Shown here in pieces: positions 157 through 50,694 of a stretch of DNA of 64,000 bases. Position 1 is the stretch's first letter, and every line of letters begins with the position of its first letter. Origin of the DNA: Candidatus Micrarchaeota archaeon (GTDB lineage: Archaea > Micrarchaeota > Micrarchaeia > Micrarchaeales > CABMGC01). The notes beneath the pieces are model-generated. The model was not told the DNA's origin and ran no database searches. It saw nothing but the letters and a program-made list of their open reading frames with translations. The stretch covers positions 12,553 through 76,552 of the forward strand of contig JAGWGW010000003.1 in NCBI GenBank assembly GCA_028867135.1, in the 5' to 3' direction. A program made the translations under genes and the position numbers.

Positions 157-546
157 ATTGACAGGCCTCATGTACCTGTACAGGAGAAGCGCTATCGCGC
201 AGGTGAACGCCACCATTACTGGTACGGACAATGTCCTGAAATAGCTTATCTTGAGATACTCTGCCTTTCCCGCCTCGAACGCCTTGTCAGCGTAGGAAAC
301 AGCCTGGTCAGGAGCAACTCCTGATATCGCCTCTGATTTGTTGAGATAGGAATATGCAAGCGTCAGGTTTGGCTCGAAGACAAGGTACGCGCTGGAGTTC
401 ACCATCCTGAGATACGAGGAGACGTTGCTTATTATGGCGTTTGCCTGTGCAGGCGAGTAGTGTTGCGCCCCTATGCTTTCCGCGAACGCGGCTGATGGGA
501 TAAGGGTGATGAAGAGTATAAGGCTCCATCCCCTCAAAGGCATCAT
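139..546 (-). CDS. Small secreted or membrane-anchored hypothetical protein (135 aa)
   Basis: This is the C-terminal part of track ORF 139..1029. The ATG at 546 gives MMPLRGWSLILFITLIPSAAFA (signal-peptide-like) and a C-terminal hydrophobic anchor (VPVMVAFTCAIALLLY). It starts 5 nt after the tfb stop. The upstream part of the track ORF is antisense to tfb. Confidence 0.55.
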   Translation of the reverse strand: MMPLRGWSLILFITLIPSAAFAESIGAQHYSPAQANAIISNVSSYLRMVNSSAYLVFEPNLTLAYSYLNKSEAISGVAPDQAVSYADKAFEAGKAEYLKISYFRTLSVPVMVAFTCAIALLLYRYMRPVNSKRGR

Positions 547-551
547 ACCAT

Positions 552-1646
552 CTACAGGTTTACGTCTATGTTGAGCTCCTTCTTGAGCTCCCTGTACCTG
601 TTCCTTATCGTGACCTCTGTTACCCCTGCAACGTCGGCTACCTCCTTCTGCGTCCTTCTCTCGCCCACAAGCGCCCCGGCAATGTAGACCGCTGCTGCAG
701 AGACCCCAGTCGGGCTCCTTCCGCTCACCAGCCCTTTCTTCATCGCCTGCTTCAATAGCACCATCGCCTTCTCCTGCGCCTCTCCGCTGAGTTTCAGCGC
801 AGAGACATATCTGGGAACATAGCTTGACGGGTCTGTCAAAGGTATCCTGAGGCCAAGCTCGTGGGCTATGACCCTGAAGCTTCTGCCTATCTCCTTCTTC
901 GGGACCCCTGATATGGACGCTATCTCGTCCAGGGTCCTTGGCATCCCTGCCCTCCTGCAGACTGCGTACAATGCAGCGTTTACAACGGTCTCGATGGGCC
1001 TTCCCCTGATCAGGTTGTTCTTGACGCACTGCCTGTACAGCAATGCAGACTGCTCCCTTATGTTCTCGGGAAGTCCCAGGTAGCTTGCCACCCTGTTCAG
1101 TTCAGGAAGCGCGACAAGGTAGTTCCTCTCGCTCGAGCTTGCTATCGACGCCCTCTTGTGCCATTTCCTCATCCTGTAAAGCTGGGCCTGCCTCTTCGAA
1201 GGAAGCTTGGTCCCCCTTATGTCCTTGTTGTACATATCTATTTCTGTCACGAGACCCTTGTTCGGCTTCATGTACTTTATCGGCGCCCCGGTCCTGGCCC
1301 TGGCGTTTCTTTGATCGGTATCGAATGCCCTCCATTCAGGCCCTACATCGGTGACGTTCTCCTCTATCACGAGGCCGCAGTTGTTGCAGATATACTCCCC
1401 TTTCTCATTGTCGAAGATGATGTCGTTGCTGCCGCAGCTTGGGCAGTGCCTTGCTTCGTCTCTCCTTGAGGAGAAGCCCTTTCCAAGGGCCTCCACGTCG
1501 AGCATCGTCTCGTTTTTGAATGCAGGCTCAGCTTCCTGCTGCGACTGCCTGTGCTGCATCTGCTGAACCGGCCTCACCGCAATCCTGGGCCTGCTTGCAA
1601 CTGTTTTTGTCCTTTTTGTCTTTGTAGACTTCGCCATTTCCATCAC
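552..1646 (-). CDS. tfb: Transcription initiation factor IIB (TFB)
   Basis: Zn-ribbon CPSCGS...CNNCG followed by two cyclin-like repeats (...GRSPTGVSAAAVYIA...TEVTIRNRYREL). Carries an unusual basic/Q-rich N-terminal extension of about 65 aa. Alternative ATG starts at 1643 and 1637. Confidence 0.95.
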   Translation of the reverse strand: MMEMAKSTKTKRTKTVASRPRIAVRPVQQMQHRQSQQEAEPAFKNETMLDVEALGKGFSSRRDEARHCPSCGSNDIIFDNEKGEYICNNCGLVIEENVTDVGPEWRAFDTDQRNARARTGAPIKYMKPNKGLVTEIDMYNKDIRGTKLPSKRQAQLYRMRKWHKRASIASSSERNYLVALPELNRVASYLGLPENIREQSALLYRQCVKNNLIRGRPIETVVNAALYAVCRRAGMPRTLDEIASISGVPKKEIGRSFRVIAHELGLRIPLTDPSSYVPRYVSALKLSGEAQEKAMVLLKQAMKKGLVSGRSPTGVSAAAVYIAGALVGERRTQKEVADVAGVTEVTIRNRYRELKKELNIDVNL

Positions 1647-1660
1647 TTAGCATGTAGTAA

Positions 1661-1670
1661 TATCTTTAAA
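1661..1670 (-). promoter_or_regulatory. Putative TATA box for tfb
   Basis: The minus strand reads TTTAAAGATA about 20-25 nt upstream of the tfb ATG codons, spacing consistent with a short or leaderless transcript. Confidence 0.35.
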
Positions 1671-1738
1671 CCTTTCAAAAGAAGCATTAAGAATATTATG
1701 TAATAAGATATATAAAGCTTTCTGTGACCTTTACGAGG

Positions 1739-2920
1739 TTAAGCCGCCTTCAGCGCCGCAAGCTCCTCCTTGCGCGCAATGCTCTTCGCAAGGGCGATCT
1801 CGGCAGCCCTTGTTCTCATTGAGAACTCGTCAGACTCTGTTATGAGGCCGGCGGTGCTAAGCAGTCTGTAGTGGCTCCTGCCGTACATGTCCAGAAGCCC
1901 TCCGAGACCGCTGCCCTTCATGTGCATGTGCATCTCCTCCCTGGTTATGGCGGTGGGCTCCTTGCCGATCCTCTCAACAATCCACCAAACGGCCTCGATG
2001 ACATTCTCGACATTCCTGAAGAAGCCAGGCTGCACCCTGTTCATCTCCCAGGATTTTATGCCCAACTCCGGAAAGGCTTCGCATACCGCTTTGTAAGGGC
2101 TTGAGCTATAATAGTGATAGAGCATGCCTTCAAGCCTGTGCTTCTTGAAATGCGCTCTCTTGAGTTTCCGCGGGTCCCTCGCAGTCTTCTCTGTAAGCCA
2201 TCTTATGGCTTCGATGCGGGTCTCCCTGGATTCATACGTGTGGTTGGGGGTGTGTTTCATCTCCCAAGGCCTTATATCGCGTTCAGGATACGCCTCGCTT
2301 ATGGCAGCGTATGGGCTGTTGTTGTGGTACGTCATGAGCGACCTGAGCCTGTTGTTTACGAAATCGTTCCAAGAGGCATTGCGCGGCTTGATGCCTAACT
2401 TCTCCTCTATGAGCCATCTGGTGGCCCTGATCCTGTTCTCCTTGCTGTCAAAGAAATGGGCCGACGTAACCGACATCTCCCAAGGTTTTATCGCAAGTTC
2501 TGGGAAGGCTTCAGAGACGGCTTTGTAAGGGCTGCCGCTGAAGTATTCGTTAAGAAGCCCTTCAAGCCTGTTGCTTATGAATTGCTCCTGGCTCGCATCC
2601 TTGGGGTCCATCTTCAAGACCTCCATGAAAAGGAAACGGACCGCGCTTGATCTCGATTTCGGCTTAAACTTCCACTGGGCAGGGGTCAGTTCAACATTTT
2701 CGCCTTCTCTCCTGTACCATCCTTTCATCATCCAGAAGTCATCCATCGTTCTCTGCCTCACCCTTCTTATGATGGGCACGCCGTCCACTACTACCCTCTC
2801 GTATTCCCGCCTTAGCTTTTCTATCGAGGTTTCCCCAGGCCTGTGTACCGACTTTAGGATTTGTCTGAGTTCGTGCTCCTCAAGCGCCCTTGACTTGTAT
2901 CTCTCCGCAAGATGAGCCAT
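1739..2920 (-). CDS. Hypothetical protein with at least 3 tandem internal repeats of about 75 aa
   Basis: Repeat core seen three times: SPYKAVSEAFPELAIKPWEM / SPYAAISEAYPERDIRPWEM / SPYKAVCEAFPELGIKSWEM. Each is followed by ...R(I/V)xA(T/I/V)xWL/WI... I cannot name the family. Confidence 0.7.
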   Translation of the reverse strand: MAHLAERYKSRALEEHELRQILKSVHRPGETSIEKLRREYERVVVDGVPIIRRVRQRTMDDFWMMKGWYRREGENVELTPAQWKFKPKSRSSAVRFLFMEVLKMDPKDASQEQFISNRLEGLLNEYFSGSPYKAVSEAFPELAIKPWEMSVTSAHFFDSKENRIRATRWLIEEKLGIKPRNASWNDFVNNRLRSLMTYHNNSPYAAISEAYPERDIRPWEMKHTPNHTYESRETRIEAIRWLTEKTARDPRKLKRAHFKKHRLEGMLYHYYSSSPYKAVCEAFPELGIKSWEMNRVQPGFFRNVENVIEAVWWIVERIGKEPTAITREEMHMHMKGSGLGGLLDMYGRSHYRLLSTAGLITESDEFSMRTRAAEIALAKSIARKEELAALKAA

Positions 2921-21127: not shown

Positions 21128-22828
21128 TTACCTGCCTTCCTTGTTCTCAACGAAGTAATCGCCGATGAACATGTACCTTGTCTTGGTCTTGACCATGGTG
21201 TCAACGGCATCCTCGGGGCTCGCGACTATCGGCATGCCGTGTATGTTGAAGCTGGTGTTGAGCACGACCCCGTAGCCGCTCTTCCTCTTCACGCTCTCGA
21301 GCAGGGCCTTGTAGTCCCTGTTCTCATCGCCCACCATCTGCGGCCTTGCAGTCATGTCGATGTGCATCACGGACCTCATGACGACAGACCTGTCCTTCCT
21401 GACCTTGTATGCCATTGTCATGAACCTGTCGTATCCTTTCACATCTTCAAGCAGGTTATCCGCCTCGTCCCTGAGCATCGAAGGCGCGAAGGGTTGGTAC
21501 CATTCGCGCTGCTTGACGAGGGTGTTGAGCTTGTCCCTGACGTTGTCGGAGCTCGCCTTCGCGAGTATAGACCTGTTTCCCAGCGCCCTTGGCCCGTACT
21601 CCATCCGGCCGTTGAACCAGAATAGATAGTTGTCCTCGTTTATCAGATCGGCAGCGTGCGACGCTTTGCTTTCCGACTCCTCGAAATGGAGCTTGCCGTG
21701 CCTCTTCAGCACCTCTTCTATCACCTCATTGCCGTATTCATTGCCAAGGTACGCGTTGTCGAACCCGTAGCCGCTCCTTCCGCTCTCTAGGTAATTCGCG
21801 TACAGCGCCGCGCCAAGGGCTATGCCGCCGTCGCCCATGTGCGGGAATATGTACCAGTTCTTCAGTTTCGGAAGCATCCTTATCCTCATGTTCGCCTTCA
21901 CGTTGGACATTATGCCCCCTGCCATTGCCACAGAGTCGATCCCGTACTCGTCGATGCAGTTGCCGAAGAAGCTTTCAAGAATATTCTCGAGCAGCTGCTG
22001 CGCCATGTACGCGAACTGCTCCCTTGGCATTCCCCAGGATATCCTTTCCAGCATCTGGTACTGCTTCACCGGTCCGTACCTTGCCTTTATCTGGCTGCCA
22101 CTTACAGAATAGAAGTCCCTGAGCTTGTTCTCCTCGAAGGTAAACGGATAGGAGTAATCGGCCATCGCCATGACCTTGCCCTCGTCCTCCAGCTCCCTCA
22201 TTCCTACGAGGTTGGTCACCTGCTCGAAGAATATGCCTATAGAATCGCGAACGCTTATCGACTTCTTCCTTTCCAGTTTTCCGTTCTCCAGGGTGCTTAT
22301 GGAGCCTGACAATCCGTCCCCAACTCCGTCTAGCGTGACTACAAGGGCCTTGTCGAAACCAGACGTGAATGCTGCTGTGGCGGCGTGAGCAGCGTGATGG
22401 TCTATCGCATGAAGCTTGAAGTTGCCGAAGCCTATGTGCTTCAGCTCCCTCGATATCAGCGCCTTGCTGATGTGGCCGCTGAACGGGAGCACTCCTACCG
22501 ATGTCATCATGTACTTGGAGAAGTGCATCTGCCTCTCGAGCATGGGCTTGAGCATCTTCCTTCTCCTGAACCTGTAGTAGCTCTCCTTCTGCTGCGGGAA
22601 TATCCTTGATAGCGTCTTCGTGAACTCTATTGTAGGAAAGGCTACGACGCTGACATCTGACGGCTTTATCCTCGCGTATTCGAGCGCGTTGATTATCGAA
22701 TTGTATGGGAACTTTACCTCCAGCTTTCTCTTTGTATACCTCTCCTCGTTCGCAGCGAATATGATCTTGTCATCCTCAATCAGGGCTGCGCCTGAGTCAT
22801 GGCCGTCCCATACGCCAAGGATATACAT
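21128..22828 (-). CDS. Carbamoyltransferase (NodU/CmcH family)
   Basis: MYILGVWDGHDSGAALIEDDKIIFAANEERYTKRK, ...DHHAAHAATA..., C-terminal ...VLNTSFNIHGMPIV. Confidence 0.85.
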   Translation of the reverse strand: MYILGVWDGHDSGAALIEDDKIIFAANEERYTKRKLEVKFPYNSIINALEYARIKPSDVSVVAFPTIEFTKTLSRIFPQQKESYYRFRRRKMLKPMLERQMHFSKYMMTSVGVLPFSGHISKALISRELKHIGFGNFKLHAIDHHAAHAATAAFTSGFDKALVVTLDGVGDGLSGSISTLENGKLERKKSISVRDSIGIFFEQVTNLVGMRELEDEGKVMAMADYSYPFTFEENKLRDFYSVSGSQIKARYGPVKQYQMLERISWGMPREQFAYMAQQLLENILESFFGNCIDEYGIDSVAMAGGIMSNVKANMRIRMLPKLKNWYIFPHMGDGGIALGAALYANYLESGRSGYGFDNAYLGNEYGNEVIEEVLKRHGKLHFEESESKASHAADLINEDNYLFWFNGRMEYGPRALGNRSILAKASSDNVRDKLNTLVKQREWYQPFAPSMLRDEADNLLEDVKGYDRFMTMAYKVRKDRSVVMRSVMHIDMTARPQMVGDENRDYKALLESVKRKSGYGVVLNTSFNIHGMPIVASPEDAVDTMVKTKTRYMFIGDYFVENKEGR

Positions 22829-22845
22829 AGAACCACTAGATTAGC

Positions 22846-25035
22846 TCAGCGAGTGCTTATCAAACTGCTGATATTGCCGACTATGCTCTGGTACGCCTCG
22901 CAAGCTGTCCATGCATTCGGTTCCTTACCCTCCCTTATGAGCTTCCTTACCTCGTCGGCCTCGCTGTTCTTCCATATTGGCATCAGGTCGTAGTTGCTCT
23001 CCTTTATGTTTCCTATCTTCCTTCCCCACATTATCGAGGGATAAACATTCCCGTAGCTGTCAAGGAACAGCGAAGCGTCAAGGCTCTTCGACTTCATGGG
23101 GGAATTTCCTGTCTCGATGTACTTGACAAGGTTCCTGAGAAACACGTTCTCGACAAGAGGTATCGCGCCCATCTCGAAATGCTTGTTCTTGATAAGGGTC
23201 TTGACATCGTTCGCTATCATGTCCTGCTGCGCCTTTATGTCGAGGTTCGCGTTCTTGTAGTATGAATCGGATATCTGCCCTACATTTACATGGAAGTTGT
23301 TGTACGTAACCCATGGGAGCTCCTGCTTGACCCCTTCATATGTCTTCTGCAGCTCCCCTTGGTTGAACTTGCTCATAGTGTATCCGAATATGAAGAAGAG
23401 GTTCTTGTATATGACCTGCAACTCCCTCAGCTTTCTGGCCATGTCGATGACCTTGTCGAAGTTGCCCTTTACTCCTCTTATCTTGTCGTGGAGTTCGCGG
23501 TGGCCGTCAAGGCTCAGCGTTATCGACACCTTCGGTATGCCAAGCTTGAGTATCTCCTCTATCTTCCTAAGCTCCATCTCTGGATTGCAGAGGGAATTGG
23601 TCGGCATCGTTAGTATGTAAAGGTCCTTCGAGTTTTCCTTGAATGCCTTTACTATCTCGACTATGTCGCTCCTGAGGAACGGCTCTCCGCCAGTAATCTC
23701 TATCCATTTGAAATAGTCGTTCTTCTTTGCAAACTCCTGTATCTCCTGCAATGACAGCTCTCCTTTCGGCCTTATCTCCCAGATATTGCAATTATGTACT
23801 ATCGCATTTGAAACAAGGTATGTATTGTCGCTTGTTTCGATGTTATGAACTGTGCCCGTATATTGAATCTTTTCGATTTTTCTAATCGGATGCAAAAAAT
23901 AATTACCAAGGCGCTTAGCATACCTGATATTAGGATTTCTCGAATATGTGATCATGTATACATCGTGATAGTTAACTTCGTGATCATAGAATTTCCCTCT
24001 TTCTTTATGTACATGAGTTATACGTGAGAAAATTCCTAGAGAAGCATATGCCAACTGGAGCTGTAGCGCCAGAGTTTTCGACACGGTAGAACCGTAGAAT
24101 ACATCGCCTTTCCAGTATCCGTCGCCGTCTTCCCAGCCCTTTAGAAATGCCTTGAGTACCGAATCGTCCTTGTTGAACAGGACAAAATCAGGGATTTTTT
24201 TATTGAGCGCGCCTGTTCCGCACCAATCTTTAAATGCTCTTGAAATAATAATCGAATTGAGATTGCATTGGGTGCAATGTATATTGTAGATTTTAGACGT
24301 AGTTTTTGTGACTGAATAGCCTAGCTTTCGCGCTATTTGTTTAACTTTCTCATGAAGATGAGTTTCTTTTATATTGAAAGAAAACCTGGCACCATTTGAA
24401 GCTGGACATCCCTCTGCAGTATATATGCCTAACAACCATGCGGTATCTTCATCTAATTTAAAAATCAACGAATGCCCTTTTCCTCTTGAAATCGCTTCGC
24501 CGCGGTTTCTAGTAAATGACGCTAGGTTTAGTTCTTTAATATCTAAAGCGCGCTTTATGACAGGCACGCAAAGATAATCTCCGTCTACGAACGAGGTTTT
24601 AGGTTTAACATCCTTTGCTTCTTTCCATGTGGGCTCTTTGAATTCGTAGGTGCGATAATACTCGTATTTGTTAGTTGCAAGGCGAGAGTGATGCCTTTTT
24701 GTTTTCGATTCGGCTATAAGAAGCGGATGCTCTGGCGTTGCTTTTACAGGTAAAAGACCCAAAGCCTTTATTTTGATCATTTCTCCTGAATAGGATCTTG
24801 AAAAAGTCTGTGAGATTTCATTTAATCCGTTTGCTCCTGCAGCTTGATCCCCGATTTTCAAATCTATGATTGGCTTATTGTCGCCTAGTATTATCTCATC
24901 GGGCTGCACACATGTGATGCACCTGCTCTGGCACCAGTAGGTGATAGAGAAGGTCAGCTTGTACGGCCTTCCGAGGTTTGTGAAATTGCTCTTCAGAGCA
25001 GTAGCTCCTAGGCCTATAAACTTGGCTGTATTCAT
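22846..25035 (-). CDS. Radical SAM enzyme interrupted by an intein (precursor 729 aa; extein 355 aa)
   Basis: The extein junction restores YWCQSRCIT-C-NIWE, i.e. CxxxCxxC. Downstream GGEPFLR and the rest of a radical SAM core. First gene of the rSAM, carbamoyltransferase, GT4 operon. Confidence 0.85.
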   Translation of the reverse strand: MNTAKFIGLGATALKSNFTNLGRPYKLTFSITYWCQSRCITCVQPDEIILGDNKPIIDLKIGDQAAGANGLNEISQTFSRSYSGEMIKIKALGLLPVKATPEHPLLIAESKTKRHHSRLATNKYEYYRTYEFKEPTWKEAKDVKPKTSFVDGDYLCVPVIKRALDIKELNLASFTRNRGEAISRGKGHSLIFKLDEDTAWLLGIYTAEGCPASNGARFSFNIKETHLHEKVKQIARKLGYSVTKTTSKIYNIHCTQCNLNSIIISRAFKDWCGTGALNKKIPDFVLFNKDDSVLKAFLKGWEDGDGYWKGDVFYGSTVSKTLALQLQLAYASLGIFSRITHVHKERGKFYDHEVNYHDVYMITYSRNPNIRYAKRLGNYFLHPIRKIEKIQYTGTVHNIETSDNTYLVSNAIVHNCNIWEIRPKGELSLQEIQEFAKKNDYFKWIEITGGEPFLRSDIVEIVKAFKENSKDLYILTMPTNSLCNPEMELRKIEEILKLGIPKVSITLSLDGHRELHDKIRGVKGNFDKVIDMARKLRELQVIYKNLFFIFGYTMSKFNQGELQKTYEGVKQELPWVTYNNFHVNVGQISDSYYKNANLDIKAQQDMIANDVKTLIKNKHFEMGAIPLVENVFLRNLVKYIETGNSPMKSKSLDASLFLDSYGNVYPSIMWGRKIGNIKESNYDLMPIWKNSEADEVRKLIREGKEPNAWTACEAYQSIVGNISSLISTR
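23791..24912 (-). mobile_element. Intein (374 aa) with LAGLIDADG homing-endonuclease domain, inside the radical SAM gene
   Basis: Begins at Cys42 (CVQPDEIILGD), ends ...AIVHN415, and the +1 residue is Cys. LAGLIDADG-type blocks WLLGIYTAEG and FLKGWEDGDGY. The DNA is visibly more AT-rich than the flanking extein. Confidence 0.85.
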
Positions 25036-37625: not shown

Positions 37626-37966
37626 TTTACGCACTTACTAATAATATTTTCCACGTCAGCTATATTATACTTTCCATTTGCTATTCCGTATACAAGGCCG
37701 AGGGCATCGGCATCGGTAATATCGAATCTTTTGCCATTGGCTTCTAATACAGTAGCGGTGCTTACAAATGCAGTTCTTTTGTTTCCATCTAAAAAGATAT
37801 GTGATACTACAATATCATGCAGCAATATTGCTGCTTTCTTAATTAGATCATTCTTTTTATTTGCTTTTTCAATTGTGAATTCTAGGTTTGCTCTATTAAG
37901 TACGACTCCTTTTTCTCCAACTTTCCTATTGATTTCTATAATATCTTCAGAAGTCAATGATTCCAT
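37622..37966 (-). CDS. doc: Fic/Doc-family toxin (death-on-curing type)
   Basis: Start at MESLTSEDI (ATG 37966). Core motif HIFLDGNKRTAF (HxFx[D/E]GNKR). The upstream part of track ORF 37622..38188 runs through the att repeat and is not used. Confidence 0.8.
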   Translation of the reverse strand: MESLTSEDIIEINRKVGEKGVVLNRANLEFTIEKANKKNDLIKKAAILLHDIVVSHIFLDGNKRTAFVSTATVLEANGKRFDITDADALGLVYGIANGKYNIADVENIISKCVK

Positions 37967-38036
37967 GGATAAATTACTCAAAGCAATTATAAAATTAGTA
38001 GTTATCCATGTAACTCTGTTCAGAGGTAAATCGAAA

Positions 38037-38049
38037 ATGGAGGCACAGG
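38037..38049. repeat. att-type direct repeat, copy 2 (junction between the two island segments)
   Basis: ATGGAGGCACAGG. Confidence 0.8.
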
Positions 38050-38393
38050 CTTGTGAAGCCTGTCCTCGCCCTGAGGCAAAAGCTAACGCTCGGGCCGCCC
38101 AGCTTGGAAGGCGACCCTCGCTCTTTCTCACTCTTTCGCTCGCTCCACCAAGCCGAGCCGATAGCAGAGGCGAGGCTTGTAAATCCAAGCTCAGGCGACA
38201 AACGGAGTTGTTCTATCGAAAAATATGGAATTCGGCTACCTTGTGCTTACCATGCACACGCTCGGGTTCATTGCGAACGCCGGGATTTTACCCGGGTCCG
38301 AATCCCGACAAGGTCGTACCCGAGTTTGGGCTCGAATCCCTACCCTGGCGAAACTATGCAACTGAACCCATATGGCTTGATGAGGAATTGCTT

Positions 38394-39215
38394 ATGACCA
38401 TTGACCCTGCAGTTATAAAGGAAATTGAACGCACGAAAGGAGATATAGAGCTATTGCTACCCAAGCTCGGGAAACACAAGATAGAGGAGCTACAGAGGCT
38501 TATATCGAGGCACTACGCCAAGCGGTTCAAGGGAAGGCGCAAGAGCAACAAATACGGGTCGCTTTCCAAAAGTTTCAACGATATGGAGATTCAGGCTTTC
38601 TTTAGGGTAATAGAGGATAGAAAATATGTTTTGTTATTCAAATATCAAGCGTTCTTGGGATTGAGGATAGGGGAAGTGGTTAAGGTCAATCTGAGAGATA
38701 TAAAGCTGGAAACAAGGGAGCTATACGTTAAGACAGAAAAGGCACAAGTAATGGATTCTCTGATAATACCTTTACCGCTTTTTAATGAAACGCTTGAGTA
38801 TGCGAAAGAAAGGCAGAAAGAGATAGAAGACGCACAAGGCTATCTTTTCTATGCGGATAAAGCTAAGACCACAAGCCAAGAACACCACCTCAACCAGCAC
38901 TACGTTAGAGGAAGGTTTAGGGATTTTGTGATTAAAGCTGGGCTTGATGAGGTTTATGATGTAAGCGATGAAAGTCAAGGTAGAAGTTTTAGAAGGCTTC
39001 ATAGGCTTACTACTCATTCACTAAGGCACTATGCGATTACTAAGTTTGCTCAACAATGCGGAGGGAATGTCTATCTGACCAGCAAGTTTGCAAGGCACAG
39101 TGACCCGTCAATTACTTCAGTTTACGTAAATGTAAGTAAGCAGGAGCTATATCAACAAATGGATAAAATGGGCGATTTGCAGGCTATTGTGCAGTTAAAG
39201 AGGAAAATAAAATGA
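38394..39215 (+). CDS. int: Tyrosine recombinase / integrase
   Basis: Catalytic residues in order: GLRIGEV (R), HSLRHYA (HxxR), RHSDPSITSVYV (H...Y). Start taken at MTIDPAV. The track ORF extends much further upstream. Confidence 0.85.
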   Translation: MTIDPAVIKEIERTKGDIELLLPKLGKHKIEELQRLISRHYAKRFKGRRKSNKYGSLSKSFNDMEIQAFFRVIEDRKYVLLFKYQAFLGLRIGEVVKVNLRDIKLETRELYVKTEKAQVMDSLIIPLPLFNETLEYAKERQKEIEDAQGYLFYADKAKTTSQEHHLNQHYVRGRFRDFVIKAGLDEVYDVSDESQGRSFRRLHRLTTHSLRHYAITKFAQQCGGNVYLTSKFARHSDPSITSVYVNVSKQELYQQMDKMGDLQAIVQLKRKIK

Positions 39216-39337
39216 AATGCTTATTTTGCCAGAACGGCTATAAAACTCATAAAGTTGGTAAGAAATCCATATGCGAGAATTGCGCTTATGAACTGAAAGA
39301 GATAATCGTCATTAGCGAATATAATTCCGCTAACTAA
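39212..39337 (+). CDS. Small zinc-ribbon ORF (41 aa) coupled to int
   Basis: ATGA overlap with the int stop. MKCLFCQNGY...SICENCAYELKE (CxxC...CxxC). Not in the ORF track. Confidence 0.4.
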   Translation: MKCLFCQNGYKTHKVGKKSICENCAYELKEIIVISEYNSAN

Positions 39338-40175
39338 ATTTTTGTAAAAGTAGTTGATGAATATCTCGTGTATATTTAGTAGTTAATTTGTATGCCTTTT
39401 TAAGATAAGGTTTTGGTATCGTCAATATGGCAAGGCGATCACCTAATTTTTTGCCTGTTTTTAATTTATATGTCAAATCAGCTACACCATCATTATGCAC
39501 TATTATATTCCTTCGATAAAACAACTCATTAAATTGCTTCCAATCCTTATTTTTATTTAGAGCAAATTCAAATTCTTCGTTAATGTAGTTAAGAACATTT
39601 TCAATTCCATCTCTAAACATCATCGATATTTCTTTTTCAACTAAAGCATCTTTGATATTGTCCATACTTTTCATTTTCAATAGTTCTTCATATGAAATTT
39701 GTTTTTTTGAAGATATCAAAAAATTATTATTGAAGTAGAATACCATACCTATTTCTTTCCTCAGAAAACTCTCAAATGAGCTTAACAAATCAACAAAATA
39801 CATCTCGTACATAAAAATAGGTATATTATGTTCATTTATGAATAACCTTAATTGTAAGCCATGGACTTTTGCTACCTTTTTATTTTTTGTTGAGATTTTA
39901 TTGGCTTTGCCCATATCTTTAACTGTTCGACTATATTCTCGTTTTTCTTTCTTGGTAAAACTTTGTGCAAGTCGCTGAATCTTAAGTTTTTCTTTTGAAA
40001 CATATTCTTTAAAAGCCGAGTCAAAAACTGATTCTGCTAATCTAAGGCTTTCCAGATTATGAAAAAATCTTGTTTGATTATGCCCTAAAAAATCTACAAA
40101 TTGCTTTTTGTTAGATTTGTATTTCTTTATTTTCTGAACTATAAGATAGCTCTTATTATTCTGAATCTTAGTCAT
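39330..40175 (-). CDS. Hypothetical protein with HEPN-like RNxxxH motif (putative RNase toxin)
   Basis: 281 aa. ELFYR-R222-N-I-I-V-H227-NDG (nt 39495..39512) in a helical-looking C-terminal half. K-rich N-terminus. Last gene of a 3-gene operon in the AT-rich cargo. Confidence 0.45.
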   Translation of the reverse strand: MTKIQNNKSYLIVQKIKKYKSNKKQFVDFLGHNQTRFFHNLESLRLAESVFDSAFKEYVSKEKLKIQRLAQSFTKKEKREYSRTVKDMGKANKISTKNKKVAKVHGLQLRLFINEHNIPIFMYEMYFVDLLSSFESFLRKEIGMVFYFNNNFLISSKKQISYEELLKMKSMDNIKDALVEKEISMMFRDGIENVLNYINEEFEFALNKNKDWKQFNELFYRRNIIVHNDGVADLTYKLKTGKKLGDRLAILTIPKPYLKKAYKLTTKYTRDIHQLLLQKFS

Positions 40176-40191
40176 TTTACCATTTCATATT

Positions 40192-41049
40192 CTAATTAGT
40201 GGTAGGTTCTGAAGCTACAGAAGGTTGAGGTTCATGATTAAATTCTAATTTAACCATTAGTATATCACTTATTTGTTCTATATTCTTCGTAAATGTAATT
40301 TCTCCCTCTTCCTCTAATATCTTGATAGCCTCCTTTATGTTATCACAATTTTGCTTATTTATTCCATGGATATATAACTTGTCAATTCCATATTTCTTAT
40401 TCTTTAGGATTTTATCCTTAATTAGGTTTTTAACTTCGTCGAGACCCATGTGGAAATTTATAAAGACAGCTAAAGGAAAGTCTCTTATAAGCTTATCAAA
40501 TATGAATTTAAATTCTTCAAGAGTTGTTGGGTCTTTGCTTAGTTCATCATATAACGGTAAGAATATATCATGAAAATAACCAGCAGTATAAAGATTAGTT
40601 ATGGTGTTGCCTCTTTCCCCATAATCATATCTTATCTGTTTTTTCCTATCATAAATTTCAGCGAAGCGCCTATTATCTTTTAAGTATTTAATATAAACTG
40701 CATCTTCTAAAGCTCCATAATCTTCAGGCAAGAGTATTGTCTGTAATTTTTCTATCGCTTTAAAATCTGAATTTATTTTATGTAGTTCCTGAATAACTGA
40801 ATATGATTTCTTTTCCATTACGAGATAATTTTCATTGTTTTCTTTTAATGCCCTCATATATTCGGCAAATGCGGTGTTCTCTTCTGGAGAAAGCGCTTGG
40901 AGATTTATAGTAAGATTCGTATAGTTATTTGTTATCTCGTGTTTCCTGTTGCCGTTTAAAATGTTGATTTCGATTTTCTCTGGTAGTTTTACAAGATTTT
41001 TAATCCCTAAAGTAGCTAAGAACTTCTTTAGCAAAACAGCAGGATTCAC
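40192..41049 (-). CDS. Hypothetical protein (285 aa), middle gene of the island cassette
   Basis: No family recognised. The C-terminal DKLYIHGINKQNCDNIKEAIKILEEE resembles an Smr motif only weakly. There is a 16-nt gap to the next gene. Confidence 0.55.
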   Translation of the reverse strand: MNPAVLLKKFLATLGIKNLVKLPEKIEINILNGNRKHEITNNYTNLTINLQALSPEENTAFAEYMRALKENNENYLVMEKKSYSVIQELHKINSDFKAIEKLQTILLPEDYGALEDAVYIKYLKDNRRFAEIYDRKKQIRYDYGERGNTITNLYTAGYFHDIFLPLYDELSKDPTTLEEFKFIFDKLIRDFPLAVFINFHMGLDEVKNLIKDKILKNKKYGIDKLYIHGINKQNCDNIKEAIKILEEEGEITFTKNIEQISDILMVKLEFNHEPQPSVASEPTTN

Positions 41050-47162: not shown

Positions 47163-50100
47163 TCACTCCTTCGCCCCGCTCTTCATCTCCTCCTTCTCCC
47201 CTTCCTTGTATTCCTTTGACAGGGACTCGAACTCCGAGTTCAAATGGCTCTGTATCTTCCTTATCGCCTCCTCTGCTTCTCCTTCCTTCAGCTCCTTCAT
47301 TCTCGAAATCTCGTCCCTCACCTTCATCATGGTTATCCTGCCTGCGTCGATTCCGCTCTTTGCGGAATCCTGGGCGCGCTTTGCGAAGAGCATTACGGTG
47401 CTGAGCATGAGGTTCTGCTTCTTCAGCGACGTGAAGGCGTCTGTCTCGTCGTATGCGCTCTGCCTGAGGTAGTCCTCTCTTAGCATTCTGCCTATCTCGA
47501 GCAGCGCCCTCTCCGTATCGGGCAGCGCCTCTGCGCCTACAAGCTGGACTATGTCCTTGAGCTCAGCCTCCCGCTGCAGTATCCTCATCGCCTCCTTCCT
47601 GTTGGCGACGAACTCCTCGCCCACGTTCTTCACGTACCAGTCGTTGAGGTCTCCAAGGTACAGCGAGTAGCTGTTCAGCCAGTTTATCGAGGGGAAATGC
47701 CTTGAGCTTGCAAGCGCGGCGTCGAGCGACCAGAAGGTCTTGACGACTCTAAGCGTGCCCTGCGATACGGGCTCCGACAGGTCTCCTCCTGGAGGCGATA
47801 CAGCTCCAACGATCGTCACGGAGCCTGTGCTCCCGCTGTGCGTCTCGACCTTTCCGCTCCTTTCGTAATATTCCGCGAGCCTCTTTGGAAGGTATGCCGG
47901 ATATCCCTCCTCACCGGGCATCTCCTCCAGCCTTCCTGATATCTCTCGCATCGCCTCTGCCCACCTCGATGTCGAGTCTGCCATGAGCGCGACGCTGTAT
48001 CCCATATCGCGGAAGTACTCGGCAAGCGTAACGCCCGTATAGATGCTTGCCTCCCTTGCTGCGACAGGCATGTTAGATGTGTTGGCTATGAGTATGGTCC
48101 TTTCCATGAGCGGCCTCCCCGTCTTGGGATCCTTGAGCTCGGGGAACTCTGTGAGGACCTCGGTCATCTCGTTGCCTCGCTCTCCGCATCCTACGTAGAT
48201 GACTATGTCGCTGTTCGCGAACTTCGCAAGCGACTGCTGGAACACTGTGTTATGCAGTATTATACCGCCAGCGCCTCCAACGAAGTTGCTGCCGAAGTTA
48301 GGGACTGACACATCATAGACATCGAAAGCTCCTGTTTCCTCCTCGATAGAGACAATTTCATCGCAGTAGATGGAATCCAGAGCCCTTGCCAGCACATGCG
48401 CAGCAAGCTCCTGCACCATGCCGTTCGATTCCACCTGTATGGAGCTGGCAAACTTCTTGAATGTGCCAATGCCCATTCTCTCTCCGTTGTTTGTGTAGTT
48501 GAATATTTCTATTCCTCTCTTGAGGAGTTCAGAGTATCTGCAGTGCCTTGAGTAGAGCTCCTTGATGTAGTCGCTCGACAGAGGCACTATGTCTATCGCA
48601 TTGTAGGCCGTTTTGTCAGAATTGACAAATTCCTCTATCGATCTTATTTTGCGATGCGACGACCTCAGAATGTCGAGCAAGAGAGTGGCATTTGTCTTGC
48701 CCCTGACGAAGATCCTATAGTACTTTTCTCCGTTCACGGGCTTGTCCGCCATACTATGTATTAGCCCGTATCTTGTGAGTAGGTAGGACAACTGCATCTG
48801 CAGTTTTTCGCTGGTTGTGCAGAACTCAATCCCCTTGCCATAGTAAGAGCCGTCGCCTATGAAGTATGCAGTAAGGAATGAGGATACAACATTGTTGTTC
48901 GATTCCAGTATCTGCTGGGGTACGGCCTTGGAGCGGGCATCGCGTCCTACGCCCAGTGAGAGCATGAATTTCACTAGGACAGAACTATGGATCAAGACAT
49001 TCGGGGTTTTGCCTGGCTGATATTCCTTGTAGCCCTTTATCCCGAACAGCCTCTCCCCAAGACGGATGAAGTTATCGAGCAGCGTTTCTTCGGAGTTGGT
49101 GAAAACTGTGGTGTTTTCGCCGCGTATGTAGCCCTCAGACACAAAGTAGCCGATGAATTCTGCAAGCTCCTCGTTCATCACATTCGGTATACTTATTATT
49201 TTCGCAGTGGTCTTGGCGTTTTCCCTGGCATTGAACGTTATCGGCACCTGCCTGCCTTTCACATTTGTTTTTCTTGCAGAGGCGATGAAGTGGCCAATCT
49301 TTAGGTCCTTCGCCATTGTTTCCATTATCTCGCCCTTCTCAGTTATCCTGAATAGCTTATGGATTGGGGTTACCTTGACCTTCCTGCCTGTTCTTGTCCT
49401 TATCTTTATTATAGAGGAGCTCTTGCCCCTGTAGAGTATGTCTGACTTGCTCTGCACCATCTCCTGGTTTTTCACCGAGAACAGCTGTACTGGATTCTTG
49501 GGAGTTATTATCTCTTCGACCCCATTGCTAATCCTTGGTTCACCGGCCGATGCATTTCTGTCGTATAGTTCCTTTATTGTTGTGATGCCTCCGTCGGCCA
49601 TAAGTATTGGCGTATCGCCTGTAACACACTTGCCACTCCCGAAAGGTCCTGGGATTGCCGCTGTTCCGCCTTTTGCAACAGGGAAGAATGTATCAGCGAC
49701 TCTTTGTCCTGTTATCAGGAGTTCGTCTGCCCTGAACTTCTGCTTGTACGTCCCAGGAGTCCTCACAGACCTTCTCCGGAGCATCGCGATCTCTGCGCTC
49801 TTTCCTCTTGACTCGACCTTTGCTATAGTGTCCTCTACTGTGAATGTGCCGTCCTTCAGTCCCTTTAGCGTGCCCTCTATCCCGCTCGGCACCATGACGT
49901 AGTGCTTTATCGTTTCCGTTTCCTGCACGTACCCGAGTATGTCCCCTTCCTTGACGTGGGAGCCGTTCTTGAGCCTCTTGTCAGCGTTGAACTTCCACCT
50001 CTTCTTCCTGTCTATCGCAACTGCCTCTATCCCCTTTCCTATGAAAGCGCCGCTCTTGGTCCTGAGAACCTCCAACGGCCTCTGGATCCCGTCGTATATG

Positions 50101-50339
50101 TTGCCGAGCACTCCGGGAGCCAGCTCCACCGATAATGCGGTGCCGGTCGACTTGACAGGCTCTCCTGGCTTGAGTCCCGTCGTGTCCTCGTATACCTGTA
50201 TTATCGCCCTGTCTGCCTTGAGCTGGATTATCTCCCCTATCAGGTTGTTGTCGCCTACCTTGACCACGTCGTACATCCTGCTTCCAAGCATGCTCTTCGC
50301 GACCACCAGCGGCCCTGAAACTCGTTCTATTACTCCCAT
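47163..50339 (-). CDS. atpA: A-type ATPase catalytic subunit A, interrupted by an intein (precursor 1058 aa)
   Basis: The P-loop GPFGSGK|...|T is split by the intein. Downstream [10 protein letters not shown] and [10 protein letters not shown] are intact. Confidence 0.95.
48249..49628 (-). mobile_element. Intein (460 aa) with LAGLIDADG endonuclease domain in the atpA P-loop
   Basis: Starts at Cys238 ([13 protein letters not shown]), ends GGIILHN697, and the +1 residue is Thr (TVFQQSLAK). Blocks [13 protein letters not shown] and [12 protein letters not shown]. Confidence 0.9.
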
Positions 50340-50343
50340 AACA

Positions 50344-50694
50344 TCATCGTATTGTTTTTGTTATATCGATTCCTATGGCCCTCAGGATCAGCTTCCTGAG
50401 CGTCTCCTCTTCTGCGTGCTCCTCCCCTGATTCGGCGATCTCGACTACAAGCGGCATTATGCTGCTCGTTATCGCATCCTGGAGTCTTCTGTCCCTTATC
50501 AGCTTCTTTGCTGCAGAACCGATAATTATGATTCCTATGTCATTCCTCTGCAGCAGCTCCTTGAACTTAGATTCCGCTCCCAGTGTGTCGCTGACGGTGA
50601 AGGCCGTGGTGATTCCAGACAGCTTGAAGCCCAGGGCTACCCTTTCGTTCCCGAGCACTGCAATCTTGTAGTTCTTTGCTAGCTTTTCCTCCAT
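50344..50694 (-). CDS. atpF: A-type ATPase subunit F
   Basis: 116 aa; [19 protein letters not shown]. Operon position between C and A. Confidence 0.85.

Follow-up and report, generated by a model that had tools for sequence, protein, structure and literature searches.

The insert that divides the radical SAM gene described here is, in all likelihood, a class-1 intein of canonical build that bears a LAGLIDADG endonuclease and interrupts, in frame, the CX3CX2C [4Fe-4S] motif of a Micrarchaeota radical SAM gene directly after the second spacer, with the third cysteine following it. The gene lies in a 64,000-nucleotide stretch of DNA from a Candidatus Micrarchaeota archaeon, which we refer to throughout as the window and in whose coordinates all positions are given. 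Translation of the open reading frame at 22846..25035 reads ...TFSITYWCQSRCIT/CVQPDE...SNAIVHN/CNIWEIRP (slashes mark the two junctions), and thus delimits an insert of 374 aa, corresponding to precursor residues 42-415, exactly at 23791..24912, where a preliminary description had located it. The same description had proposed that the site directly precedes the third Cys of CX3CX2C, that the +1 nucleophile is therefore itself an Fe-S ligand, and that splicing rebuilds CQSRCITC; translation, the Pfam matches and collinearity with homologues all agree with this predicted outcome. The features of the locus are the following.

22846..25035, minus strand: precursor ORF (N-extein, intein and C-extein), 729 aa plus stop, Micrarchaeota-type radical SAM protein
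24913..25035, minus strand: N-extein, precursor residues 1-41, with the C-terminal end YWCQSRCIT
24913..24933, minus strand: cluster cysteines 1 and 2 with their spacers (CQSRCIT); Cys39 is at position -3 from the intein
23791..24912, minus strand: intein, 374 aa, precursor residues 42-415; HINT splicing domain with an inserted LAGLIDADG homing endonuclease (Pfam, AlphaFold2, Foldseek)
24868..24912, minus strand: Block A (CVQPDEIILGDNKPI), with catalytic Cys1; C1 and G10 invariant in 30 clade members
24715..24747, minus strand: Block B (VKATPEHPLLI), with the TxxH motif; T59 and H62 (T59-P-E-H62) invariant
24406..24444, minus strand: Block C, LAGLIDADG motif 1 (TAWLLGIYTAEGC), with the acidic Glu167
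24115..24156, minus strand: Block E, LAGLIDADG motif 2 (LKAFLKGWEDGDGY), with the acidic Asp264
23791..23862, minus strand: Blocks F and G (YTGTVHNIETSDNTYLVSNAIVHN), with the penultimate His373 and terminal Asn374, both invariant
23788..23790, minus strand: +1 Cys codon (TGC), splicing nucleophile and third Cys of CX3CX2C
22846..23790, minus strand: C-extein, 314 aa plus stop, remainder of the radical SAM core including TGGEPF (Pfam)
21128..22828, minus strand: carbamoyltransferase gene, downstream, 17 nt past the radical SAM stop; conserved as a neighbour within the intein-free locus L002
25100..25771, plus strand: family-2 glycosyltransferase gene, divergent; conserved as a neighbour within the intein-free locus L002

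Intein and host protein

The insert shows the features of a class 1 intein, namely Cys1 (CVQPDE), TxxH, HN followed by Cys+1 (AIVHN/C), and the HINT fold. Blocks A, B, F and G, whose absence on alignment had been named as grounds for abandoning the assignment, are all present, and so are the two LAGLIDADG blocks reported earlier (LLGIYTAEG at 160-168 and FLKGWEDGDG at 256-265, in intein numbering). Searched alone against Pfam, the intein scores 44 bits with LAGLIDADG_3 (cutoff 22.5) and 28.5 bits with Hom_end (cutoff 21.1); Intein_splicing, LAGLIDADG_3 and Hom_end all fall within the insert, and Radical_SAM begins at residue 416. Among 30 members of the intein clade C1, T59, H62, H373 and N374 are invariant, while E167, D264 and the +1 Cys are kept in at least 90%. 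The AlphaFold2 model of the intein has a mean pLDDT of 94 and a pTM of 0.92; its best Foldseek matches in the PDB are intein homing endonucleases (PI-SceI, E 8.5e-19; TliVMA intein, TM 0.69), with I-DmoI and PI-SceI as structural matches for the endonuclease part, which is of the double-motif LAGLIDADG type with its alpha-beta-beta-alpha-beta-beta-alpha core. For the whole precursor, MAFFT put the N-exteins of intein-free homologues onto the C-terminal columns of the intein, an alignment that would misdirect AlphaFold2.

The best structural matches, PI-SceI, the TliVMA and PhoVMA inteins, PI-TkoII and PI-PfuI (PDB 1vde, 7qsu, 7qst, 2cw7, 1dq3), share with the intein of the window the combination of HINT and double-motif LAGLIDADG domains, whereas their identity to it is 13-17% and they reside in other hosts (V/A-ATPase, DNA polymerase, RNR) at other sites, none of them in a CxxC motif. 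PI-TkoII is the sole PDB match by sequence. A HINT domain of the bacterial intein-like or Hedgehog type is ruled out by the combination of HN, Cys+1 and endonuclease.

Membership of the extein in the radical SAM superfamily is indicated by CQSRCITC in the spliced product, by the GGEP motif, and by PF04055 (Radical_SAM), which matches residues 416-557 with 53 bits over a cutoff of 29.5. Once the insert is removed the sequence is collinear with uninterrupted radical SAM proteins over CxxxCxxC, and the alignment of the predicted spliced product to SkfB and cytosylglucuronate decarboxylase runs through the cluster motif. The host protein scores below every cutoff of the NCBIfam profiles; judged by its sequence, the host gene is a conserved, uncharacterised Micrarchaeota radical SAM gene.

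Empty sites, same-site alleles and mobility

Intein-free alleles, which the preliminary description had recommended seeking in relatives, are plentiful: more than 100 Micrarchaeota homologues carry no insert, and this rules out a native non-splicing domain of the family. Among the best 120 extein homologues listed, all are uninterrupted (343-376 aa) with the single exception of a 301-aa fragment. The motif is conserved in intein-free homologues as CQSRC[LIV]TC, and those whose sequences were inspected have CQSRC[LI]TCNIWE. One of these loci, L002, is a syntenic empty site, with the gene order GTPase, GT2, radical SAM, carbamoyltransferase, GT4, in which the 24 nt 3' of the insertion site are identical to the window; empty-site DNA of this type reads ...CAGTCCAGATGCCTCACG/TGCAATATCTGGGAGATAAGGCCG around the insertion point.

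An orthologous intein occupies the same codon in eight other assemblies, seven of them species genomes of GTDB Micrarchaeota and the eighth the locus L001. Because eight further, independent assemblies have this insertion at this codon, chance is excluded; the agreement of all nine likewise rules out an assembly artefact. C1, T59, H62, E167, D264, H373 and N374 are invariant across the nine alleles (the +1 Cys was read from the junctions), and the arrangement of Cys39 (-3) and Cys42 (Cys1) is common to all of them. Pairwise, the same-site inteins are 53-80% identical, a divergence about that of their exteins; L008 comes nearest to the allele of the window, with 75% identity for the intein and 85% for the extein. 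With its nine alleles and many empty sites, the locus offers a clean and well-populated natural case of an Fe-S ligand motif split by an intein, in a host phylum, the DPANN Micrarchaeota, that has so far received little attention in intein work.

Two observations would suit a HINT/LAGLIDADG domain that has degenerated or been domesticated and has lost splicing, in which case the gene would be a pseudogene or encode a two-domain protein. The C-extein of L001 is frameshifted, which may represent either an assembly error or a sign that some intein-bearing alleles decay, and in the REEA68 genome the NCBI annotation calls a 301-aa C-extein fragment alone (P0006). We consider this reading highly improbable. 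All the splicing and endonuclease catalytic residues are intact and invariant in the nine alleles, the intein reading frames are all open, the extein halves are in frame and 53-85% conserved among alleles, and an unspliced protein would have no contiguous cluster motif. Moreover, the identity between the inteins of the window and L008 is 0.82/0.86/0.46 at the three codon positions, with third-position divergence far above that of the first and second, and therefore purifying selection acts on the intein. The REEA68 annotation also flags a practical problem, as at least one public genome calls the C-extein fragment of the radical SAM gene alone.

Differences in base composition had been taken earlier as evidence of a recent invasion. 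The contrast itself is real: G+C is 39.6% in the intein and 48.2% in the extein. The figures first given for it (about 30 versus nearly 50 percent) were overstated, as even the lowest 200-nt windows reach 35%. That the intein came in very recently from a low-G+C donor, with its AT-richness as an un-ameliorated foreign signature, is consistent with a GC3 of 0.37 in the intein against 0.69 in the extein and about 0.65-0.75 in most long ORFs of the window, with the other intein in the window, a classical one in the ATPase A subunit, which is far nearer to the composition of its host (GC3 0.60 versus 0.72), with the empty site in a close relative whose extein is 84% identical, and with the presence of related inteins on viral contigs. 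We nevertheless regard it as unlikely, since the other eight same-site alleles (the seven genome loci and L001) have an intein GC3 of 0.29-0.40 over host flanks that range from 44% to 54% G+C (57% in the L001 extein), their divergence tracks that of the exteins (r = 0.59), with even L008 no nearer than the values given above, and no near-identical donor was found. AT-richness does not show a recent invasion because it is common to all nine alleles, whatever the G+C of the host, although they are only 53-80% identical; the earlier deduction is thus not supported, and to judge from these sequences low G+C is a long-standing trait of the intein lineage and not a clock. A search of the window for a further copy of the clade of the radical SAM intein did not find one, the sole other match being the ATPase A-subunit intein.

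In the extein tree, intein-bearing alleles are scattered beside intein-free sisters (the exteins of L003 and P0023, for example, are 93% identical), and in some pairs the inteins resemble each other more closely than the host genes do, as seen for L003 and L005 (80% versus 73%). On this sequence evidence, the patchy spread and the incongruence between intein and extein are the marks that a selfish homing element leaves, and the data fit an active homing cycle. At the DNA level, the endonuclease would cleave alleles that lack the intein, at the conserved codons of the motif, and the element would be copied in; such a cycle would explain the presence/absence differences among close relatives.

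Splicing and its possible control

The steps of splicing can be proposed from established intein chemistry, and activity from the conserved residues and the selection described above. After translation, an N-S acyl shift at Cys1 would come first; the thioester would be attacked by Cys+1, which later serves as the third ligand of the cluster; Asn374 would then cyclise, and a peptide bond would join the exteins. The expected product is a 355-aa enzyme with CQSRCITC, in which the ligated junction peptide would read ...SRCITCNIWEIR.... With a 374-aa domain between ligand 3 and ligands 1 and 2, the unspliced precursor cannot work as a radical SAM enzyme. What favours the insertion site is its invariance in the host gene, together with the obligatory Cys+1 that it provides.

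The preliminary description had also raised the possibility that the intein Cys1 competes for cluster binding or makes splicing sensitive to redox or Fe-S status. Competition of Cys1 for the cluster in the precursor is pure speculation. There are precedents for splicing that depends on redox state: the SufB intein of Mycobacterium tuberculosis has been reported to splice in response to oxidative and nitrosative stress. It resembles the intein of the window in that its host belongs to Fe-S metabolism, and it is an example of splicing coupled to redox/Fe-S state; SufB, however, is a cluster-assembly scaffold, whereas the host in the window is a radical SAM enzyme, and the SufB intein is not known to interrupt a cluster-ligand motif.

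A closer parallel is found in the MoaA intein of Pyrococcus abyssi, in which, according to the summaries of Callahan et al. 2011 in PMC3922620 (section 17) and PMC10663303 (section 3.2), a native disulfide between Cys-3 and Cys1 controls splicing, which is blocked until conditions become reducing. As described there, this intein shares with ours an oxygen-labile radical SAM host and an N-extein Cys at -3 from the catalytic Cys1, and from the 'Cys-3/Cys1' description in these summaries and the known MoaA motif its site would also precede the third CX3CX2C Cys. The host in that case is GTP 3',8-cyclase, of another family and phylum than the Micrarchaeota host of the window. Since the precursor has Cys-3 and Cys1 as in the disulfide block of P. 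abyssi MoaA, redox gating of the intein in the window is plausible by analogy.

A further step would be to regard the insertion position as adaptive and the intein as a post-translational switch: a disulfide between Cys39 (-3) and Cys42 (Cys1) under oxidation, or metal or an Fe-S cluster on the pseudo-motif CQSRCIT-C1, would keep the precursor unspliced, so that the oxygen-labile enzyme is made only when workable. The Cys-3/Cys1 geometry, as the two summaries describe it for P. abyssi MoaA (PMC3922620, PMC10663303), speaks for such a switch, and so do the frequency of Cys-3 in the wider intein clade and the nature of the clade hosts, both detailed below. Most Micrarchaeota homologues, however, do without the intein, which is therefore dispensable; patchy distribution and intein/extein incongruence point to a selfish homing element; and the preference for Cys-3 could stem from splicing chemistry or from the conformation of the CxxC knuckle. 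On balance we find an adaptive role somewhat unlikely. The existence of dozens of natural precursors makes the choice between a purely selfish element and an environmental switch testable.

The intein clade and other radical SAM inteins

The intein belongs to a large archaeal clade, most of whose members come from Nitrososphaerales and Micrarchaeota, while some lie on viral contigs. The lineage has a strong bias to CxxC motifs. In 98 distinct clade junctions, Cys is found at +1 in 95 and at -3 in 38 (39%), against 0-6% at other flank positions; at +4 it occurs in only one, and therefore the intein lies before the second Cys of CxxC and hardly ever before the first. A query with the intein only, which is free of extein bias, gave Cys-3 at 11 of 17 sites. 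The clade hosts include redox and metal sites such as thioredoxin (WCxP/C), a glutaredoxin-like protein (CPY/C), the tandem CC of NuoB (N2 cluster) and Zn fingers or ribbons; the radical SAM CX3CX2/C site is used in at least three enzyme families, and the first Fe-S ligand of PriL is also a site. Two other radical SAM families with related inteins at this motif position are represented by P0242 (CNSRCSY/C; intein 51% and extein 29% identical to those of the window) and P0319 (CNFKCRE/C; intein 28%, extein 22%). Some bacterial and Thermoplasmata loci (L069-L080) were rejected by eye as other inteins in non-radical-SAM hosts (class II ribonucleotide reductase-like, topoisomerase VI B-like, dCTP deaminase-like).

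The -3/+4 asymmetry is left unexplained by the notion that inteins need a conserved Cys, and it agrees with the geometry of redox traps, both the engineered ones and the natural one of MoaA. It is possible, though in our view rather doubtful, that the clade is specialised on the second Cys of CxxC-type redox or metal motifs, that all such precursors carry a Cys-3/Cys1/Cys+1 triad, and that splicing is gated throughout the clade by thiol redox or metal availability; if true, redox and metal proteins would be under a general form of post-translational control. We found no description of the clade in the searchable literature. Searches on inteins in tetraether synthesis, CXXC insertion sites, NuoB, Micrarchaeota and the P. 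abyssi molybdenum cofactor returned nothing relevant, and 'intein' and 'radical SAM' were unconnected within the texts searched.

Whether the insertion site was already catalogued had been left undecided in the preliminary description. For other radical SAM families it effectively is, by the MoaA literature as covered in the summaries cited above and by two NCBIfam models; the new element is the preference for Cys-3 at the level of the clade, the kind of insertion itself being already known. The two models, NF045703 (tetraether lipid synthase Tes) and NF038136 (Rv2578c family), are curated 'exception' models for radical SAM proteins that, like the one in the window, contain an intein. NF045703 aligns contiguously from the intein of the window into the first 64 residues of the C-extein, with 64 bits against a cutoff of 1700, and NF038136 aligns with a piece of the N-junction only (11 bits against a cutoff of 700, E 0.13); because these scores are far below the cutoffs, the protein of the window lies outside both families. 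Positions 143-164 of the Tes profile can be aligned, with no gap, to the N-junction of P0242 (LEITELCNSRCSY/CLPPSEIIL), and this alignment suggests that the Tes intein sits at the same motif position, the junction matches being weak and local (E 0.006 and 0.13).

Precursor anatomy and identity of the insert

Translation of the precursor ORF places the insert exactly at the coordinates reported in the preliminary description, with the following parts:

22846..25035, minus strand: precursor ORF, 729 residues
Precursor residues 1-41, minus strand: N-extein, ending ...TFSITYWCQSRCIT
23791..24912, minus strand: intein, precursor residues 42-415, starting CVQPDEIILGDNKPI and ending ...DNTYLVSNAIVHN
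Precursor residue 416 onward, minus strand: C-extein, reading CNIWEIRPKGE...

The Pfam domains LAGLIDADG_3, Hom_end and Intein_splicing all map within the insert, and a Radical_SAM domain runs from residue 416 (53 bits against a cutoff of 29.5). Deletion of the insert in silico yields a 355-aa protein in which the CQSRCITC motif is whole, and which aligns across the cluster motif with two solved radical SAM enzymes, SkfB (CNLSCSFC) and cytosylglucuronate decarboxylase (CNADCFMC), in agreement with the earlier placement of the intein at the third Cys of CxxxCxxC.

In an alignment of the intein with 29 relatives, C1, G10, T59, H62, H373 and N374 are invariant (T59 and H62 belong to the TxxH of block B), and E167, D264 and the +1 Cys are kept in at least 90%. 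E167 and D264 are acidic residues, one for each LAGLIDADG motif; their conservation, together with the Pfam matches, bears out the presence of both blocks. The AlphaFold2 model built on this alignment has a mean pLDDT of 94 and a pTM of 0.92, and its best PDB matches (PI-SceI, the Thermococcus litoralis and Pyrococcus horikoshii VMA inteins, PI-TkoII and PI-PfuI) are all intein homing endonucleases; I-DmoI and other free-standing LAGLIDADG enzymes rank below them. Because of the residue conservation, the model and these matches, the insert possesses every sequence and fold feature that defines a class-1 intein bearing a double-motif LAGLIDADG endonuclease.

On the basis of established intein chemistry, Cys1 would form a thioester with Thr41, which Cys+1 would attack; Asn374 would then cyclize, and an S-N shift would produce the Thr41-Cys416 peptide bond. 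Cys+1 being the third [4Fe-4S] ligand, 374 residues lie between ligand 3 and ligands 1 and 2 before splicing, and the precursor should not be a working radical SAM enzyme until spliced. Alleles lacking the intein would be cleaved by the endonuclease at the motif codons, which are highly conserved.

Empty sites, alleles and composition

A search with the spliced extein retrieved 1109 relatives, of which the best 120 are uninterrupted and 343-376 aa long, except for one 301-aa fragment; the source names given among these 120 are Micrarchaeota every time, and CQSRC[LI]TCNIWE is present in the homologues that were read. Around the gene for the closest of the 120, P0001 (84% identity), genes follow the order found in the window (Obg-like GTPase, GT2 glycosyltransferase, radical SAM, carbamoyltransferase, GT4), and on the 3' side of the insertion point 24 nucleotides match the C-extein flank of the window exactly. 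Thus, relatives do carry intein-free alleles, and the P0001 locus provides a syntenic empty site.

In a scan of species-representative genomes, seven Micrarchaeota MAGs (L003-L008 and L020) had an orthologous intein inserted at the identical codon, 55-75% identical to that of the window in the nine-allele alignment; one more same-codon allele is present in a Logan contig (L001/P0121). The intein reading frame is open in all nine. The L001 allele (positions 322..2486) contains a frameshift in its C-extein (GIPG, then TTTAR*, with the remainder in another frame), which may be an assembly error or the mark of a decaying allele. For L008 (JAGWHD010000002.1, Micrarchaeota REEA68) the public annotation consists only of a 301-aa 'radical SAM protein' (P0006) from an internal Met of the C-extein; since the full intein-containing ORF is intact (41 + 370 + 314 aa), the intein seems to have led to a misannotation.

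Between the inteins of the window and of L008, its nearest allele, identity at codon positions 1, 2 and 3 is 82%, 86% and 46%, which clearly indicates purifying selection across the entire intein and its endonuclease. The intein-bearing alleles are dispersed in the extein tree, usually beside intein-free sisters; the exteins of L003 and of intein-free P0023 are 93% identical. Pairwise identities among alleles are 53-80% for the intein and 53-85% for the extein and are correlated (r = 0.59); in several pairs the inteins resemble each other more than the host genes do (e.g. L003/L005, 80% vs 73%). Judging from these sequences, the pattern is what a homing cycle would predict: some vertical descent, transfer among relatives, and loss.

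The difference in G+C previously estimated at about 30% against nearly 50% is real but smaller (39.6% in the intein, 48.2% in the extein). The third-codon-position G+C (GC3) is 0.37 in the intein and 0.69 in the extein, most long ORFs of the window having values of about 0.65-0.75. The preliminary description had taken AT-richness as a sign of recent invasion, a reading that is not supported: intein GC3 is 0.29-0.40 in the other eight alleles, yet divergence between alleles is as great as between their hosts, and therefore low G+C is a stable trait of the intein lineage. The G+C of the flanks is 44% to 54% at other alleles, and that of the L001 extein is 57%.

Cluster cysteines as intein sites

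NCBIfam includes two 'exception' models of intein-containing radical SAM proteins, NF045703 (Tes) and NF038136 (Rv2578c family). NF045703 is the best NCBIfam match of the precursor, with a contiguous alignment that starts in the intein and takes in the initial 64 residues of the C-extein, and the N-junction of a related protein aligns to this profile without gaps; NF038136 matches weakly across the N-junction of the window precursor (E 0.13). The precursor scores far under the two cutoffs and so belongs to neither family. When the full precursor was run against 1.84 billion representatives in a profile-free HMMER search, related inteins turned up at the corresponding motif position in two further radical SAM/SPASM families: P0242 (CNSRCSY/C, the slash marking the extein/intein junction), whose intein is 51% identical to that of the window with an extein only 29% identical, and P0319 (CNFKCRE/C; 28% and 22%, respectively). 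These same-position inteins make the third Cys of CX3CX2C a recurrent intein site. P0319 (1350 aa) joins a GT2-like domain to a radical SAM/SPASM protein (tungsten-cofactor-maturase-like) and has two inteins, the second located further downstream at a tandem Cys (DVQVC/C) close to where the C-terminal SPASM region begins.

The site is known in kind, as the studied intein of Pyrococcus abyssi MoaA, a radical SAM enzyme, probably interrupts the cluster motif as well; according to two reviews (PMC3922620, section 17; PMC10663303, section 3.2), both citing Callahan et al. 2011, a native Cys-3/Cys1 disulfide in this intein prevents the first step of splicing except under reducing conditions. No paper on the Micrarchaeota radical SAM intein itself was found in the literature searched. 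Since the precursor has Cys39 at -3 and Cys42 as Cys1, and given this direct precedent, redox gating of splicing is a reasonable hypothesis by analogy with MoaA; competition of Cys1 for the cluster is speculation.

The nearest intein relatives outside this gene (about 40-45% identity) occur in many different host proteins of Nitrososphaerales and other archaea. Of 98 distinct junction contexts in this clade (proteins P0121-P0383; loci L009-L068), 95 have Cys at +1, and Cys is found at -3 in 38 (39%, a value that the full-precursor query could slightly favour), at 0-6% at the other positions from -10 to -1, and at 1% at +4. Cys-3 was present in 11/17 sites from an intein-only search and in about 6/18 from a genome scan with the seed inside the intein. 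Because Cys occurs at 39% at -3 versus 1% at +4, inteins of the clade sit ahead of the second Cys of CxxC, almost never ahead of the first, a bias that a mere requirement for a conserved Cys does not explain. No account of such a preference turned up in the searchable literature, although so limited a search does not prove novelty. The preference at the clade level is the main added value of the analysis, as it makes the question 'selfish element or sensor' experimentally straightforward.

Among the hosts, NuoB has the intein between the tandem cysteines that ligate cluster N2, and the primase large subunit (...NYPP/CVKEAL) has it at a Cys that is presumably, by homology, the first Fe-S ligand; others are thioredoxin (WCxP/C), a glutaredoxin-like CPY/C, C2H2 zinc fingers and zinc ribbons. 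A great many NuoB genes of Nitrososphaerales (complex I subunit B; P0151, P0164 and about 70 other proteins, L021, L065) carry a 378-aa clade intein with junctions HLETAC/C...VHN/CSVEVGA. In these inteins GC3 is as high as in the flanks or higher, which is suggestive of long residence. No paper pairing 'intein' with 'NuoB' was found in the literature search. P0241 (898 aa), a small zinc-ribbon(-like) protein, has two clade inteins, one per CxxC knuckle (ECKS/C.../CGAPLY and KCNR/C.../CSEVV), such that more than 80% of the precursor is intein. Eight viral contigs from IMG/VR (L081-L088) bear clade inteins, at 27-40% identity, in host genes of other kinds. Several of these inteins are at Cys+1 sites such as .../CHEH[LV].YYS, a junction shared with L058 (a Woesearchaeota MAG) and L059 (a MAG labelled Saccharibacteria). 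Viruses may act as vectors of clade inteins.

Other putative mobile elements in the window

The window also contains a second, unrelated intein and a low-G+C island:

48249..49628, minus strand, in ORF 47166..50360: 460-aa intein at the P-loop site of the A-type ATPase catalytic subunit
About 37731..41049: low-G+C island between the ABC1-kinase and aminotransferase genes
37731..39215, plus strand: tyrosine (phage-type) integrase, 494 aa, in the island
39330..40175 and 40192..41049, minus strand: two ORFs without Pfam match, G+C 27-31%, GC3 0.24-0.27

The ATPase intein has a LAGLIDADG domain and the junctions GPFGSGK/CVTGDT...GGIILHN/TVFQQ; its GC3 is 0.60 versus 0.72 in the extein, a much smaller gap than for the radical SAM intein. 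The island at 37731..41049 is probably an integrated mobile element.
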